Below are positions 11,043-56,955 of a stretch of 64,000 bases of DNA, one piece after another. Every line of letters starts with the position of its first letter. Position 1 is the first letter of the stretch. The DNA comes from Oscillospiraceae bacterium (GTDB lineage Bacteria; Bacillota; Clostridia; Oscillospirales; Ruminococcaceae). The DNA lies in the NCBI GenBank assembly GCA_017521325.1, contig JAFXCV010000061.1, positions 8,332 through 72,331 of the forward strand, given 5' to 3'. The notes below the pieces were generated by a model. It was not told the origin of the DNA. It was given only the letters and a program-made list of their open reading frames with translations, and did no database searches. Made by a program: the position numbers and the translations under genes.

Positions 11043-11081
11043 TTTGTCAAGAAGTATTCTAAAGATAGGCACCCTATCACT

Positions 11082-11176
11082 GCCCCCACCCCAACCCCTC
11101 CCCCAGAGGGGGAGGGATAAAATTTGGAGGGTACTGCGTACCCTCCACCCGCCAAAGGGCACAGCCCTTTAAACCC
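11082..11176. repeat. GC-rich modular palindromic intergenic repeat (copy E1)
   Basis: ctgcccccaccccaacccctcccccagagggggaggga matches the core of the 22040-22518 units at roughly 85%. gccaaagggcacagccctttaaaccca resembles the C module of copies at 13073 and 32866. Confidence 0.7.
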
Positions 11177-11187
11177 AGCATCATTTT

Positions 11188-13072: not shown

Positions 13073-13129
13073 GGGGGACGCCGTCCCCCATACCCCCTGC
13101 CAAAGGGATATTATCCCTTTGGAATCCCA
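13073..13129. repeat. GC-rich modular palindromic repeat (copy E2) inside the thrS 5' leader
   Basis: gggggacgccgtcccccataccccctgccaaagggatattatccctttggaatccca is nearly identical to 32866-32923. Confidence 0.8.
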
Positions 13130-19971: not shown

Positions 19972-20534
19972 GAATATGTCATTTGGAGCAACTGCAAACT
20001 CAAACGTTTTCGGTGTGATGCGGATTTAAAAGCGCCGGAAACGTTCGGGAGAGCAGAAGGCAACAAATACGGTGAGTTTGCCGACAATTTTCGGTATTAC
20101 TTCATTTCTGATATCCCCCAAAAAGGACGGAACGCTGACTCCTCCGTCCTCCATTCTACCATAGACAGTACGAACAATTTTCTTGTATTGCACGGTGCAA
20201 GAGAATGCTAATGTTTGTGCTGTCTTTTCCTTTCTGTACGCAATTGACGGACAATCCCCCGTTTCAACCTGTACGCACAAGCTATTTCAGGGGATTTTTA
20301 TCGAATAGAATTTTTCCATTTTTAGTTTTTAACTTAAATGCTTCATACAGAAACAGCCCGATAATCCTGCAAAAATGTGCTAAACAACATCACCAAAAAG
20401 CATCACTTCAATTTGGTGAAAAGGTAGAATCACACCATCCTTTTCCAATATTTTTCCTGCTGTATTGTTATAATAGTGAGATCGTTCATCTCATACATGT
20501 ACATATATCTGAATGTGACGAAAGGAGTGTTGTT

Positions 20535-22016
20535 ATGACAACTATGAAAAAAAGAATCCTCAGCTGTATGCTCGCAGCAGGAATGCTCATTCCCACGACT
20601 GCCTCTGCATGGTATGGTCAGGGGGACATGAACGCCGATGACTGCCTCAACGCATTCGACCTTGCGATCATGAAGCGGAAACTCAATGAGGAAAAGGAAT
20701 ATTTCGATTACGACGAATACCCGATGGAAGCGGATCTCAACGAAAATGACGCTTTCACGGCGTATGACGTAAAGCTCATGCAGAGCTACGTGCTTGGCAA
20801 AATCGGGAGCTTCTCCGATGTACCGCTGATCTCCAGCAAGGCACTTGCTTCGGGGACCGAACGTACTGAAAACGGTAAGATGGCAAGTACGGCATTCAAA
20901 CAATCGCAGATGGATTTTGCCGCAAACCTCTTCAAGCAGACCGCACAGAACCAGGAAAATACCCTGATCTCACCCATTTCCGTATCTATTGCGCTTTCCA
21001 TGACAGCGAACGGTGCGGACAAGCAGACACGCACGGAGATGGAAAACGTCCTCGGCTTGAGCGTTGAGGACATCAACGAATACATGGCGTACTACCTCAC
21101 GCACATTGGAAACAGTTCGGATGCCCGTGTCAATATTGCAAATTCCGTCTGGTTCCGTGATGATGAAGAACTGACTGTTGAGGAGGATTTCCTCGACGCA
21201 AACAGCAATTATTACGATGCGGAACTCTATGCATCGCCCTTTGATGCAGGAACCGTGAAGGATGTCAACAGCTGGGTGGAGGGCAAAACCGACGGCATGA
21301 TTCCGGAGCTTATCGGGGAGATTAGTCCGGATACTATGCTGATGCTCATCAACGCCATTGCATTCGACGCAAAATGGTCGAATCCTTACGAAGACTATCA
21401 GGTGAAGGACGGCACCTTCACTGCCGCTGACGGCACGGAGCAGGATGTGCAGATGCTGCACTGCGACGGCGATGATTACTATGAATTTGAAAACGCCGTG
21501 GGCTTCTCGAAGGCATATGAGGGTTATGATTACCGCTTTGTGGCAATTCTTCCCGATGAAGGCATGACCGTTTCCGAATGGATCGCACAGATGGACAGCG
21601 AAGCGGTACTCACTGAGCTTTCCGAGCCGGAAAGGGATTACATTGTCATCACGCAAACGCCGAAATTCAAATACGAAACAGATCTTAAGCTCAAGGATGT
21701 GCTCTCCGCTATGGGCATGCCGACGGCGTTTGACCGAACAGAGGCGGATTTCTATAAGATGGGAAAGCGTACCGTGGACGGCATTGATTATCCCCTGTAT
21801 ATCGGCGAAGTCCTGCATAAGACCTGCATTGACCTCAACGAATCCGGTACCCGTGCGGCGGCTGTGACGGCTGTTATCATGAATGCCGCCGGTGCTGAAC
21901 CGAGTGAGGAAGAACCCATCATCAAGTACATCACGCTTGACAGACCGTTTATCTACATGATCGTGGATAACAACAACATTCCCCTGTTCATGGGAACGGT
22001 TCAGAGTGTGGAATAA
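20535..22016 (+). CDS. Serpin-family protease inhibitor with N-terminal signal peptide and dockerin
   Basis: Signal peptide MTTMKKRILSCMLAAGMLIPTTASA. Dockerin GDMNADDCLNAFDLAIMKRKL...ADLNENDAFTAYDVKLMQSYV. Serpin body (ISPISVSIALSMTANGA) with hinge and RCL ESGTRAAAVTAVIMNAAGAEP. Confidence 0.9.
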   Translation: MTTMKKRILSCMLAAGMLIPTTASAWYGQGDMNADDCLNAFDLAIMKRKLNEEKEYFDYDEYPMEADLNENDAFTAYDVKLMQSYVLGKIGSFSDVPLISSKALASGTERTENGKMASTAFKQSQMDFAANLFKQTAQNQENTLISPISVSIALSMTANGADKQTRTEMENVLGLSVEDINEYMAYYLTHIGNSSDARVNIANSVWFRDDEELTVEEDFLDANSNYYDAELYASPFDAGTVKDVNSWVEGKTDGMIPELIGEISPDTMLMLINAIAFDAKWSNPYEDYQVKDGTFTAADGTEQDVQMLHCDGDDYYEFENAVGFSKAYEGYDYRFVAILPDEGMTVSEWIAQMDSEAVLTELSEPERDYIVITQTPKFKYETDLKLKDVLSAMGMPTAFDRTEADFYKMGKRTVDGIDYPLYIGEVLHKTCIDLNESGTRAAAVTAVIMNAAGAEPSEEEPIIKYITLDRPFIYMIVDNNNIPLFMGTVQSVE

Positions 22017-22039
22017 TATCTTTTATTATCGCTATGAGA

Positions 22040-22518
22040 GGATGCAGCCCTTCGGGGCGCATCCTCGTCTTTTTTCAGGGTGCATTGTACGGCTGCCCCC
22101 ACCCCTGCCCTCCCCCTGAGGGGGAGGGAGAATAAATCGGGGGCTTCGCCCCCGTACCCCCTTGTGGGGATGCCACCCCACGTCCCATTTAAGGATGCAG
22201 CCCTTCGGGGCGCATCCTCGTCTTTTTTCGGGCTGCATTGTTCGGCTGCCCCCACCCCTGCCCTCCCCCAAGGGGAGGGAGAATAAGTCGGGGGCTTCGC
22301 CCCCGTACCCCCCTTGTGGGGATGCCGCCCCACGTCCCATTTAAGGATGCAGCCCTTCGGGGTGCATCCTCGTCTTTTTTCGGGGTACATTGTACGGCTG
22401 CCCCCACCCCTGCCCTCCTCCAAGGGGAGGGAGAATAAGTCGGGGGCTTCGCCCCCGTACCCCCTTGTGGGGATGCCGCCCCACGTCCCATTTAAGGGCT
22501 GCCCTTCGGGGCGCATCC
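22040..22518. repeat. Tandem array: three full units (153, 152 and 151 bp) plus a 23-bp partial unit of a GC-rich multi-hairpin element; each unit starts with a terminator-like hairpin
   Basis: Units at 22040-22192, 22193-22344 and 22345-22495, with the partial at 22496-22518. Each unit starts with GGATGC-A-GCCC-TTCG-GGGC-GCATCC plus TCGTCTTTTTT. This is followed by the hairpins CCCTCCCC..GGGGAGGG, CGGGGGCTTCGCCCCCG and GTGGGG..CCCCAC. Confidence 0.9.
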
Positions 22519-22594
22519 TTATTTGTTTATTGCATTCCCCCGAATCTTATGATATAATAGTAGCAGCAACAAAATCAATAAATAGGAGGAAGCC

Positions 22595-24199
22595 ATGGAA
22601 CCTACGATCCGCCAATTCAGCCTGCTCTCACCCAATGACAGCAATGCTTATTTTCAGCTCAGCGACAGCACAGCCAATGATCTGTCCATTGATTTTCTTG
22701 CCGCCCATCTATCCCACGAAAAGGAAGAACAGCCGAAGCTTCGCCGTCTCCTCATGCAGATGCCCGTGGATCCTGCCATCATCTCCTATCGTCAGGCAAT
22801 TTACAAGGATCTGAAATCTGCACCTGAAATCTGCGAAAAGATGTAGGAAATCTTTGATGTCATGCAGTTCTACACCATGGATGTCAGCCGCAGCATCTAC
22901 GAAAAATCGAGCATCTGGGAGCTTGTCACTCGCCTGCGTTCACTGCAGAACTACGTCAGCTCCATATCGCAGCTGCAAACGCTCTTAAAGGGAAGCAAAT
23001 TTGAGTCCGAGGGAATGCGGACACTTGTGCAGCACATCGAAACGATCAGCACGGAAAGCGGATTTGCGGAACTTGCAAAGGATCTTGAAATGCTCGGCGA
23101 TGACATTGACGGAATCCGCAGCATGACGCTCGGTGTCAATTTTGACAGCGAATTTTATCCGCATGAGGTGGGAATCATTTCACTCAATCCGTATGCATTC
23201 GGAGAAAAGGGCGTACTGGAACGATTCCTGCAATTTCACCGTCAGCAAAAGCCCTCCGATGCGGATCTGACTCCTTTTACGATGCTCACGCATGAAAAAA
23301 AGCCATCCGCTGCGGAAAGTCCTCTGATGAACAACCTCACACAGATCGTGGAACGGATGCTGCCGACTGCCACGAAAAAGCTGCACAGGCTTCTGAAGAA
23401 ATACACCGACGTCAGCGGCATGGCACTTGCAAGACTCGGCGACGAGCTGATGTTCTATCTGCGTTTTATCGAGCTGGAAAGAAAGCTTGATGCCGCAGAT
23501 CTTCCCACCTGTATTCCCGAATGTTCCGAAGATGACACGATCTTTTCGGAGCTTTACAATGTAAAGCTTGCCATCTGCCATCTGGAGGACACGGTGGAGA
23601 ACCGTATCATCTGCAATGATATGGAGTTCACAAAATCCCGTAACATTCTGATTCTGACAGGTCCCAACCATGGCGGAAAGACAATCCTGACGCAGGCTTT
23701 GGGGCTTGCCGTCCTGCTGTTCCAGCAGGGGGTTTGTGTACCGTGCAGCGGCGGCAGGATCGCCCTGTGCGACGGAATCCACACACATTTCCCTGCCGAT
23801 GAAAACCAGACCGTTGCACTCGGCAGACTCGGCGAAGAATCCGAACGCTTCCGCATCATCTGCCGCAGTGCTACCGCAAAGAGCCTTTTGCTGTTCAACG
23901 AATCCTTTGCCACCACAAGTCACACGGAATCACTGTACATTGCACAGGATGTGCTGAAATACCTGTGCTGTCTTGGCGCAAGGACATGCTTTAACACACA
24001 TATGCATGAGCTTGCCGAGCATGCGGAACAGCTTCGCTGTGCGCAATCCGTCTGCGGTGCGGCAAGCGTTGTCATGGGGCAGCGTGAGGGCGAGGATGCC
24101 TATCGAATCCGCTACGAAAAGCCCGACGGGAAGAGCTACGCCCACGACATTGCTCTGCAGTACGGCATCACCTTCGAACAGCTTCTGGGGAATTTGTGA
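22595..24199 (+). pseudogene. MutS-related ATPase (MutS domain V family) interrupted by a single in-frame TAG at 22844-22846
   Basis: ORFs 22595-22846 and 22862-24199 are in the same frame (...PEICEKM*EIFDVMQFYTMD...). Walker A GPNHGGKT and the MutS_V signature LLLFNESFATTS are in the downstream part. The upstream 83 aa look like the family's normal N-terminus. Confidence 0.6.
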
Positions 24200-32865: not shown

Positions 32866-32923
32866 GGGGGACGCCGTCCCCCTGTACCCCCTGCCAAAGG
32901 GATGTACATCCCTTTGGAATCCC
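32866..32923. repeat. GC-rich modular palindromic repeat (copy E4)
   Basis: gggggacgccgtccccctgtaccccctgccaaagggatgtacatccctttggaatccca is nearly identical to 13073-13129. Confidence 0.8.
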
Positions 32924-56795: not shown

Positions 56796-56955
56796 ATCCC
56801 CTTAACTCGAATAGACAAAAAGTCTATTCGAGTTTAGCCGCCGGAGGCGGCGTAGGGGATTGCATGAGACGAGATTTGAACGTTTTGCGTTCAAATCAGC
56901 GGATGACGTAGTCAGCCGCCCCACCCCCCAATTGTCTATTGGGGGGTGGGGATTA
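56796..56955. repeat. GC-rich multi-hairpin intergenic element (copy E5)
   Basis: Consecutive hairpins: CTCGAATAGAC..GTCTATTCGAG, GCCGCC..GGCGGC, GATTTGAACG..CGTTCAAATC and CCCCACCCCCC..GGGGGGTGGGG. It shares the gccccacccc motif with the other copies. Confidence 0.6.

Follow-up and report, generated by a model that had tools for sequence, protein, structure and literature searches.

The window analysed here is a 64,000-nt stretch of the draft genome (designated G000) of a rumen Ruminococcus-like bacterium, a 2.48-Mb assembly of 75 contigs that is 96% complete. It contains a gene for a dockerin-bearing serpin, a tandem array that begins 22 nt past the 3' end of that gene, and a MutS-like gene read as two ORFs (Table 1). 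The second of these ORFs (22862-24199) matches Pfam MutS_V with an E-value of 2.1e-20, and the first (22595-22846) has no Pfam match. The motif TTGCAT-17 nt-TGaTATAAT is, as read from the letters, likely the promoter of the MutS-like gene; it was unlisted by the promoter scan because its -35 hexamer fits at 3 of 6 positions only.

Tandem Repeats Finder (TRF) places the array at 22039-22519 with a period of 152 bp, 3.2 copies in this one draft assembly, 94% matches and a score of 851. Its three units are 94.2%, 94.1% and 96.1% identical in pairwise comparison and differ mutually at 6-9 positions, so that the tandem array of a multi-hairpin unit proposed in the preliminary description is real, with the borders given there (22040, 22193, 22345 and 22496) lying within 1 nt of the TRF register. 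Each unit consists of a 27-nt locus-specific hairpin (H) and a 125-nt GC-rich element (E), and all units are in direct, head-to-tail orientation in the order H-E-H-E-H-E-H, which leaves every element with a 25-27-nt hairpin on either side. The whole 152-nt unit occurs at a single locus in the genome, and the inner 125 nt alone belong to a dispersed family. ORFs over the array are low-complexity on both strands, in line with the lack of credible coding content noted before.

Table 1 Features of the array, its flanks and related repeats (window coordinates)
Feature	Position	Strand	Basis
Dockerin-bearing serpin, upstream gene	20205..22016	+	Pfam Serpin 1.2e-84, Dockerin_1 9.7e-8; ORF list
H1, 27-nt locus-specific hairpin AGGATGCAGCCCTTCGGGGCGCATCCT	22039..22065	+	sequence, fold; unique to this locus in genome
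E1, 126-nt family element without inverted repeats	22066..22191	+	nhmmer, alignment to family copies
H2, second hairpin copy	22192..22218	+	sequence, TRF, fold
E2, second element copy	22219..22343	+	alignment
H3, third hairpin copy	22344..22370	+	sequence; C-to-T change, pairing kept as G-U
E3, third element copy	22371..22494	+	nhmmer match C2:30706-30777, E = 5e-4
H4, terminal diverged hairpin copy AGGGCTGCCCTTCGGGGCGCATCCT	22495..22519	+	sequence, TRF
Putative promoter of MutS-like gene	22530..22558	+	read from sequence
MutS-like gene (MutS domain V), downstream	22595..24199	+	ORF list, Pfam
Full member of array family, between convergent genes	11044..11186	+	nhmmer C2:19375-19517, 92.7 bits
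Shorter two-hairpin repeat, thrS leader	13073..13129	+	blastn
Second window copy of shorter two-hairpin repeat	32866..32923	+	blastn
Member of third, separate repeat family	56796..56955	+	blastn

Folding and terminator-like character of the array

All hairpins named in the preliminary description fold as stated: GGAUGC-A-GCCC UUCG GGGC GCAUCC, CCCUCCCC/GGGGAGGG, CGGGGGC UUC GCCCCCG and GUGGGG/CCCCAC all form in the predicted fold, which has a minimum free energy of -73.2 kcal/mol (z = -3.1 relative to dinucleotide-shuffled sequence). The array's opposite strand likewise folds better than its shuffles (z = -3.3). In every unit the hairpin is followed by UCGUCUUUUUU, the U-run beginning 5 nt past the stem in the main fold, and the array sequence thereby presents the GC-rich stem-loop and U-tract of an intrinsic terminator. 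A scan of the array region returned 9 terminator-like sites where 1.2 were expected; on the + strand there are three hairpin/U-tract sites, one a unit, plus the terminal hairpin H4 with the T-rich tail of the locus itself (TTATTTGTTTATT). The UUCG-capped hairpin does open each unit, as described earlier, but it is specific to this locus and not a module of the repeat family.

A host-selected RNA or regulatory device, acting as serial terminators, as stabilisers of the serpin mRNA 3'-UTR or as a source of small RNAs, with any mobile origin secondary, would fit the hairpin and U-rich run in each unit, the excess of terminator-like sites, the folding of both strands and the terminator-stem substitution in H3 that retains pairing. 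Against such a device, an Rfam 15 scan of 21500-23000 with permissive E-values reached no family threshold, the best matches (at most 24 bits, E of at least 0.8) being at chance level, and no orthologous array of the unit, itself unique to the locus, was found in 40 relatives.

Hairpin duplications in a dispersed family

Membership of the array in a dispersed, modular family of intergenic repeats, suggested beforehand, was confirmed on a much larger scale, with an nhmmer profile recovering about 106 loci in this genome; the family is also present in many genomes of the same genus. Its members are 110-230 nt long, have no coding capacity, and in canonical copies carry terminal inverted repeats of 15-16 nt (CAGnyTGTCrAAAAAG) at both ends. 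They lie at gene 3' ends, in 27 convergent contexts versus 6 divergent ones. Compensatory changes are seen in family hairpins 2 and 3, and at least 10 copies have a nested insert of about 62 nt in the loop of hairpin 2. E1 matches the family profile (C2:30401-30474, E = 2.5e-5) and contains a T-run, a C-rich core (CTGCCCCCACCCC..CCCTCCCC/GGGGAGGG) and the hairpins CGGGGGC/GCCCCCG and GTGGGG/CCCCAC, while the nearest relative of E2 elsewhere in the genome, C74:53605-53672, is 88-90% identical over 61-68 nt. Alignment to family copies found neither terminal inverted repeat in any of the three array elements; within this sub-type they are present at C34:68693-68846 and at locus L011 in genome G018.

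Within the window, the module sharing reported at 11082-11176 turned out to reflect a full family member. The other proposed dispersed copies did not hold: the repeats at 13073-13129 and 32866-32923 come from a family of their own, with about 15 members, each of them a 60-nt double hairpin similar to the 3' modules of the array family. The repeat at 56796-56955, thought to be a distant copy, is from a third family that is unrelated and has about 7 members.

Further tandem arrays of repeat plus element lie at C34:32545-32873, C10:14-289, C17:3-260 and G005:C10, the first of these having two hairpin loops inverted between both its units. Contigs C10, C17, C58 and C59 begin or end within family arrays, a sign that the assembly struggled with these repeats, and with 75 contigs in the draft one might ask whether the assembler expanded a single H-E-H locus or chained strain variants behind the serpin gene. 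We regard this as very improbable, since the units, which sit within an 81-kb contig, are distinguished from one another by 6-9 positions, strain variants yield graph bubbles and not tandem copies, the element-hairpin-element junctions need at least two tandem units, and collapse with undercounting is the more usual error.

Canonical family copies lie between direct repeats that are usually a complete terminator palindrome and measure 16-74 nt (median 28 nt). Scores of at least 26 were reached at 35 of 73 independent loci, each with a different local terminator hairpin duplicated, compared with 6 of 400 control intergenic sites, and scores of at least 36 at 27 of the 73 compared with 1 of the 400. 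A hairpin of -6 kcal/mol or stronger lies inside 28 of 34 flanking repeats, and the repeats abut the inverted repeats exactly (e.g., C6:24263, C20:19296 and C66:5394). At G000:C3:17225 the MITE sits between two copies of the hairpin AAATCCCCGTTAC..GTAACGGGGAT, where relatives G003 and G002 have a single copy; the single hairpin at the same site in relatives identifies the hairpin pair as a target duplication. The multi-locus search for empty sites covered four loci. L083 lacks the element present at C65:8718, and G005:C28 is empty at the C20 locus, with no recognisable orthologous hairpin. The same hairpin-duplication footprint occurs in other species (L009, L011, L012 and L144).

From this we conclude that the UUCG hairpin of the array is a local terminator that was duplicated at insertion. 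On this reading H1 is the duplicated target, and the hairpin that opens each unit is the footprint of a transposon that reads the shape of DNA, rather than something designed into a regulatory repeat. Genome-wide, the two copies of duplicated hairpins differ at 4.2% of positions in stems compared with 17.8% in loops (p = 7e-9), which, with the compensatory changes in family hairpins 2 and 3, could again be taken as selection for a regulatory structure; such stem conservation is also expected from palindrome-templated repair. The family, moreover, has no fixed orientation to flanking transcription, with 20 copies opposite to and 12 in the same direction as the genes in tandem contexts. A host-selected device is therefore, in our judgement, an unlikely account of the array.

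At the serpin locus itself, relatives G016 and G003 have another, single terminator behind the serpin gene and then a convergent neighbour, and none of the relatives searched yielded an orthologous site that was empty or had a single unit. A metagenome scan for the locus returned a sole relative at 52% identity, and a search for contigs encoding either array-flanking protein returned no record.

Relation to IS1182 and other repeat systems

The inverted repeats tie the family to insertion sequences of the IS1182 family. Locus L020 (G014:C6:5678-7209) is a 1.53-kb IS with the ends CAGCCTGTCGAAAAAG...CTTTTTTGACAGGCTG, lying between perfect 31-nt hairpin repeats; over two ORFs it matches the NCBIfam model IS1182 (NF033551) with 201 and 183 bits, and it carries Pfam DUF772 and DDE_Tnp_1_6. 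A second copy, L023 (G056:C171), has a 33-nt hairpin repeat. The inverted repeats of both (CAGCCTGTCrAAAAAG) are identical to those of canonical family copies, and the similarity between IS and family at the left end runs past the inverted repeat (AAAAAGTCC...TTTTTC). The two kinds of element differ in that the IS is 1.5 kb long, encodes its transposase as two frameshifted ORFs in both copies and does not contain the C-run/G-run hairpin modules occupying the gene-less MITE. L018 (G065), the first IS1182-like locus inspected, was rejected as a partner because its ends differ.

The IS represented by L020 and L023 is not present in the genome of the window, in which (at 96% completeness) no PF13751 or PF01609 match to an IS1182 transposase was found and pairing of inverted repeats at 0.7-6 kb yielded no convincing autonomous IS. 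Of 50 genomes in the genus, 14 contain PF13751. The family thus shows the IS1182-matching inverted repeats, small gene-less elements, stem-loop duplication and presence/absence polymorphism of MITEs, and lacks a cognate transposase in the same genome.

IS1272, of the IS1182 family, targets stem-loops, and the model of its authors predicts that the entire stem-loop is duplicated (Wan et al. 2017, PMC5678879). Such duplication is pathway (b) of that model only, the IS1272 insertions observed in S. aureus having replaced the stem-loop with no duplication (PMC5678879). The IS copies of the genus share with IS1272 and TnSha1 the transposase family NF033551 and the targeting of inverted-repeat or terminator stem-loops immediately downstream of genes, the choice depending on shape rather than sequence (PMC5678879; Furi et al. 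2016, PMC4923244). In contrast to IS1272, the array family duplicates the whole hairpin, and the element in the window, 125 nt long, is a derivative that has neither genes nor inverted repeats and has been tandemly amplified. Like the bacterial MITEs Correia/CREE, RUP, MITEAba12 and Nezha, the family is gene-less, 100-250 nt long, bounded by inverted repeats, intergenic, present in many copies and IS-derived or cross-mobilised (PMC10969869). The duplications of those MITEs are fixed at 2-9 bp, whereas here they span 16-74 nt and are sized by the local palindrome. We know of no described head-to-tail amplification of element plus duplication in Correia/CREE, RUP, MITEAba12 or Nezha, and a literature search on MITEs that duplicate terminators did not turn up the array family.

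The REP/BIME-like organisation first proposed for the array does not stand up to these findings. The family does resemble proteobacterial REP/BIME in being abundant, with GC-rich extragenic palindromes near gene 3' ends and mosaic clusters of modules, and BIME copy number also changes by slippage. However, its canonical copies are bounded by IS1182-type inverted repeats and lie between long target duplications, the array units are direct and not alternating, and neither a 5' GTAG nor a GTRG tetranucleotide is found at module starts. The RAYT sought in the genome (PF01797, Y1_Tnp) is likewise missing: the sole match is an 85-aa IS200-like TnpA C-terminal remnant (C63:2173-2316) with no flanking motif nearby. 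Spread of a REP/BIME-type element by a RAYT is thus largely refuted and scarcely credible here.

The family has a conserved core, a C-run hairpin plus two more C-runs (CCCCCACCCCAACCCCTCCCC-loop-GGGGAGGGG), whose opposite strand is a four-tract G-quadruplex motif. For this core (GGGGAGGGGTTGGGGTGGGGG, four G-tracts) the ViennaRNA G4 model favours the quadruplex at -51.6 versus -28.8 kcal/mol. The G-rich REP of Cardiobacterium hominis likewise combines a G-rich palindrome arm with G-tracts that form a hairpin or tetraplex (Charnavets et al. 2015, PMC4690160). It differs in its sequence (GTAGGGTGGGGCTTGCCCCACC) and its linkage to a RAYT, and the quadruplex of the family core is a prediction. More than 120 contigs of other phyla contain an exact 21-mer of the core, which is also found in Chloroflexota, Caulobacterales, Cardiobacterium and CPR genomes; the reversed-motif control for the core pattern differs from the motif at just two positions. 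The exact 20-mer GGGGAGGGGTTGGGGTGGGG is present at about 20-55 copies per Sphingomonadales genome, with the hairpin and G-tract module often in inverted doublets about 64 nt apart, an arrangement reminiscent of REP/BIME, although three sphingomonads rich in the motif contained no RAYT (PF01797). In the present genus the same internal modules lie between two different sets of inverted repeats. The core motif was not found in the literature searched. We entertain, as a doubtful possibility, that the core is a hairpin/G4 module in its own right, about 45 nt long, which different phyla share or have acquired repeatedly, and not accidental IS1182 cargo. If so, it would be a small, undescribed, structure-based mobile or recruited element, and arrays of this sort would be by-products of its hairpin formation in vivo.

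Origin and meaning of the array

We consider it probable that the array arose when one old insertion of a non-autonomous transposon (a MITE), from a family tied to IS1182-family insertion sequences, was amplified locally. Family elements with the inverted repeats CAGnyTGTCrAAAAAG stand directly at the foot of intrinsic-terminator palindromes, with the whole palindrome on either side, both for the full IS in genomes of the genus and for the MITE copies here. On this model, a single insertion behind the serpin gene would have produced hairpin-element-hairpin. Since the three array elements have neither inverted repeat, we infer this insertion by analogy with other loci. The two hairpin copies of 25-27 nt, 125 nt apart, would then have provided the substrate on which unequal recombination or replication slippage acted, each added hairpin-plus-element unit extending the locus towards H-E-H-E-H-E-H, and such recombination or slippage between hairpin copies is the most likely route to the array. 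The internal hairpins are all of the H type, the last copy alone being different. Had simple unequal crossing-over operated between H and the diverged H', the 5' part of H' would be expected internally, which is not so, and later mutation or gene conversion is therefore invoked.

Alternatively, each copy might have hopped from its neighbour into the duplicated hairpin, one element and one hairpin being gained per event. The IS/MITE family targets hairpins and each insertion makes a new adjacent one, arrays and clusters exist at several loci, and the nested insert in family hairpin 2 is consistent with insertion of this kind. Units without both inverted repeats should not be substrates, however, the genome has no transposase, and all arrays are strictly head-to-tail, where insertions into palindromes would be expected in both orientations. 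Serial self-targeted transposition thus appears distinctly improbable, and we retain amplification of one insertion through its hairpin copies. Because the array elements lack inverted repeats and the genome lacks an IS1182 transposase, the array is now immobile DNA. The array, though real, represents selfish DNA of a familiar type that has been amplified.

That IS1182-type elements duplicate whole stem-loops was formerly just a branch of the IS1272 model; it is documented here by complete IS copies, a MITE family of many members, empty sites and duplication sizes that track the palindrome. The long duplications are themselves substrates for recombination, and one insertion can lead to a short satellite-like array. 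Such loci affect annotation through false ORFs and broken short-read assemblies. As a GC hairpin adjoins the element's T-run in each unit, the array is predicted to hold several weak-to-moderate terminators, and the MutS-like gene behind it, with a promoter-like site of its own, should be insulated. More generally, the multiplication of terminator-like hairpins behind genes may alter read-through into their neighbours.

Composition of the tandem array

The array between the serpin gene and the gene for a MutS domain V protein has a period of 152 bp and 3.2 copies with 94% matches (TRF), and its three full units share pairwise identities of 94.2%, 94.1% and 96.1%. One unit is predicted to fold as RNA at -73.2 kcal/mol (z = -3.1), and the fold contains the hairpins of the preliminary description, given in the table. 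The opposite strand of the unit also folds (z = -3.3), a simple terminator scan found a hairpin with a T-run in each unit on the plus strand, and no Rfam family matched the array region. The neighbouring MutS-like gene reads as two ORFs of 83 and 445 aa with 15 nt between them, only the second matching Pfam MutS_V; the gene may be frameshifted or split, or a distinct small gene may account for the first ORF.

The window spans C2:8332-72331 of a 2.48-Mb draft assembly of 75 contigs with 49% G+C. The complete 152-nt unit occupies a single locus in this assembly, whereas the stretch inside the unit that begins at CTGCCCCCACCCC and takes in the GC hairpins is widespread. No other occurrence in the genome was found for the unit's first 27 nt, the "UUCG-capped terminator". 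Each unit thus combines a locus-specific hairpin, H (AGGATGCAGCCCTTCGGGGCGCATCCT), with a 125-nt family element, E, and the order along the array is H-E-H-E-H-E-H. Membership in a dispersed family, previously ascribed to the whole unit, holds for E and fails for H. A profile search built from nine canonical copies gave about 106 family loci, to be read, like array lengths, as a lower bound since the family disrupts short-read assembly, with contigs starting inside copies. The final H of the array has diverged (AGGGCTGCCC...); after it comes a T-rich tail that belongs to the locus itself.

Anatomy of the family and its core module

Canonical copies are 145-165 nt long and comprise six parts, in which the pairing of hairpins 2 and 3 is preserved by two-sided changes. 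Elements lie at gene 3' ends (27 convergent, 32 tandem and 6 divergent contexts by crude gene calls), in variable orientation to transcription (20 opposite, 12 same). In other copies the same internal hairpin modules lie between different ends, ATTACTCCGGCAAATAAAT..CAGGTAC and GAATCCATTATCGACCTTTCATTGCCGGATTAAT, which are unrelated to the first pair, and the family is therefore a mosaic on at least two inverted-repeat sets. In at least 10 copies, the loop of hairpin 2 holds about 62 nt of conserved inserted sequence (CGCTGAACAGCCCGTCCCCTCTGTCTCACTTTGCTCGACATCTCCCCACCCCGTGGGGAGTC), which contains a TTCGACA motif resembling the right inverted repeat and may be a nested hairpin-targeted insertion. 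The window also has members of two other dispersed families. One is a double hairpin of 60 nt with about 15 copies, of which one stands after the thrS T-box terminator and ahead of the start codon; the other is an element of 160 nt with about 7 copies.

The exact core 21-mer was also observed in more than 120 contigs of other phyla (loci L029-L148), mostly Sphingomonadales, together with Chloroflexota, Caulobacterales, Cardiobacterium and CPR genomes. In those phyla the core stands alone as a hairpin module some 45 nt long, frequently as inverted doublets, and the exact 20-mer GGGGAGGGGTTGGGGTGGGG occurs about 20-55 times per sphingomonad genome. Selection bias accounts for part of this pattern; G-tract spacers vary among neighbouring copies. 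The G-rich strand of the core (the opposite strand) matches the canonical quadruplex motif with four G-tracts, for which the ViennaRNA G4 model predicts a quadruplex in preference to the hairpin. A hairpin/tetraplex equilibrium has been shown for a REP of different sequence that is linked to a RAYT (PMC4690160). A search of three sphingomonads with many core copies detected no RAYT. Horizontal spread, convergence or recruitment as cargo may explain the distribution of the core.

Features of the array and its family (C, contigs of the window's genome, G000; L, loci from other genomes)
Feature	Location	Detail
Tandem array	window 22039-22519	
Upstream flanking gene		dockerin-bearing serpin
Downstream flanking gene	window 22595-24199	MutS domain V protein
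Promoter-like sequence	window 22530-22558	TTGCAT-17-TGaTATAAT
Array-unit hairpin 1 (RNA fold)		GGAUGC-A-GCCC UUCG GGGC GCAUCC
Array-unit hairpin 2 (RNA fold)		CCCUCCCC/GGGGAGGG
Array-unit hairpin 3 (RNA fold)		CGGGGGC UUC GCCCCCG
Array-unit hairpin 4 (RNA fold)		GUGGGG/CCCCAC
Canonical part 1, left inverted repeat		CAGyTTGTCrAAAAAG
Canonical part 2, small hairpin		variable
Canonical part 3, invariant core		CTGCCCCCACCCCAACCCCTCCCC-loop-GGGGAGGGG
Canonical part 4, second hairpin		variants include GAGGGTAC-TGC-GTACCCTC, GTGGGTAC..GTACCCAC, CGGGGAC-TTC-GTCCCCG
Canonical part 5, third hairpin		CCAAAGGAC-TTCG-GTCCTTTGG or variant
Canonical part 6, right inverted repeat		GGTTTTTCGACAGACTG
Core	window 22094-22126, 11100-11135; also genome-wide	CCCCCACCCCAACCCCTCCCC-loop-GGGGAGGGG
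Copies with second termini	C17:47965-48089, C65:8718-8837, C23:55604-55733, C70:37608-37729, C22:7251-7395	C22, right end only
Copies with ~62-nt insert	C6:11390-11599, C15:21671-21740, C17:93051-93127, C21:6876-6950, C28:12518-12617, C41:4609-4827, C55:11222-11312, C65:43817-43890, C65:18357-18562	
Variant of ~62-nt insert	C58:13439-13647, C74:92792-92879	
60-nt double-hairpin family	window 13073-13129, 32866-32923	
160-nt element family	window 56796-56955	
Other head-to-tail arrays	C34:32545-32873, C10:14-289, C17:3-260	also in the genome G005
Contigs starting within copies or arrays	C10:1-290, C17:1-260, C58:1-146, C59:1-95, C42:1-86, C36:1-46	
IS copy L020 (G014)		1.53 kb; ends CAGCCTGTCGAAAAAG and CTTTTTTGACAGGCTG
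IS copy L023 (G056)		second IS copy; 33-nt hairpin repeat
IS derivative L025		735 bp, internal deletion
Two-frame transposase	L020 528-1932; L023 ~207-1489	overlapping frames
Compared cross-species copies	L144 5613-5783 and C6:24260-24431; L182 369-584 and C53:2-217	

Duplicated hairpins and an IS1182-family relationship

A direct repeat brackets the element at 35 of 73 independent loci when a score of 26 or more is required, and at 27 of 73 when the threshold is 36; the corresponding counts among 400 control intergenic sites are 6 and 1. These repeats are 16-74 nt long (median 28), differ in sequence at each locus and adjoin the inverted repeats without a gap. A strong hairpin lies inside 28 of 34 of them, usually a complete A-tract/stem-loop/T-tract terminator palindrome. 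Divergence between the two hairpin copies is 4.2% in stems, 17.8% in loops and 11.9% in flanks; since the stems vary least, both copies remain hairpins, which could be due to selection or to repair in which the palindrome served as its own template.

No DDE_Tnp_1_6 or DDE_Tnp_1 transposase was found in the window's genome. DDE_Tnp_1_6 is present in 14 of 50 genomes of the genus, and the family's inverted-repeat pattern occurs at six of these transposase loci. In the insertion sequence at L020, two overlapping ORFs with Pfam DUF772 and DDE_Tnp_1_6 jointly span the NCBIfam IS1182 model (scores of 201 and 183 bits); the element has an identical 31-nt repeat, the palindrome AAGGAAGTGAGTTATTGTAACTCACTTCCTT, on either side. 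The transposase lies in two overlapping frames in both IS1182-family copies, which could represent decay or a programmed frameshift. Similarity between the insertion sequence and the MITEs (gene-less family members with inverted repeats) extends beyond the inverted repeat (AAAAAGTCC...TTTTTC). IS1272, of the IS1182 family, inserts at stem-loops behind genes, and one branch of its model duplicates the whole stem-loop, the observed outcome being replacement (PMC5678879); in contrast, the IS and MITE copies described here carry the whole hairpin in duplicate.

The family belongs to the IS1182 sphere and is not REP/BIME, the organisation first proposed for it: the genome has no RAYT, the GTAG motif is missing and the array units are direct. 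The sole Y1 transposase trace in the genome is an IS200-type TnpA remnant (85 aa, C-terminal; C63:2173-2316, minus strand).

Empty sites were identified for individual copies. At G000:C3:17225 a MITE lies between two copies of GAAATCCCCGTTAC..GTAACGGGGATTTC, and two relatives (G002 and G003) have a single hairpin of this type, share the downstream flank and lack the element. Likewise, the element at C65:8718 is absent from an Oscillospiraceae MAG (L083). Hairpin-repeat-flanked MITE copies were found in four other species (L009, L011, L012 and L144). One copy is 94.8% identical between species, with flanks at 85-87%, and another 97%; overall, MITE identity between species is 95-97% and that of flanking genes of the same species 78-87%. 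As the copies are closer than the flanking genes, this points to recent interspecies spread or very recent common activity, and the sequence comparison fits recent spread between species.

Origin and role of the array

We consider it most likely that the array arose from a single insertion followed by recombination or slippage between hairpins. One insertion behind the serpin gene would have generated H-E-H', where H' is the other hairpin copy, a duplication that is inferred for this locus and shown for the family; misalignment of the two 25-27-nt hairpin copies, during recombination or by slippage, would then have added complete [H+E] units. In support of such amplification, the terminal partial unit is exactly H, and the three elements are 94-96% alike, compared with at most 90% over 61-68 nt for any other copy. 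Comparable head-to-tail arrays occur elsewhere. The two-unit array on C34 has canonical copies with inverted repeats and three hairpin copies; its units have reverse-complemented loops in hairpin 1 (TTT versus AAA) and hairpin 3 (TTC versus GAA), which suggests that hairpins flip, or that the template is switched, in vivo.

Two observations are difficult for the single-insertion origin. The array elements lack both inverted repeats: they begin exactly at GTCTTTTTTC and finish at CATTTAAGG, whereas copies of the same sub-type with repeats continue leftward into CAG..GTCAGGCAAG and rightward into ACTTTTCGACAGACTG. In addition, simple unequal crossing-over would be expected to leave the 5' part of H' in the internal hairpins, which is not seen. 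With the left inverted repeat gone, no more than 5 nt separate the hairpin from the element's T-run, which recreates a terminator-like site in each unit. The alternative that the array is an assembly artefact is unlikely because its units, which lie within an 81-kb contig, differ from one another at 6-9 positions. A search of flanking-protein records and a metagenome scan found no strain-level sequence of the array locus.

Relative to the published literature searched, documentation of whole-hairpin duplication for both IS and MITE copies, the scaling of duplication size with palindrome length and the secondary tandem amplification are new. The array itself is most likely selfish, now immobile DNA and nothing more. 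Plausible side effects would be repeated termination behind the serpin gene and an insulating effect on the MutS-like gene, which is preceded by a promoter-like sequence.
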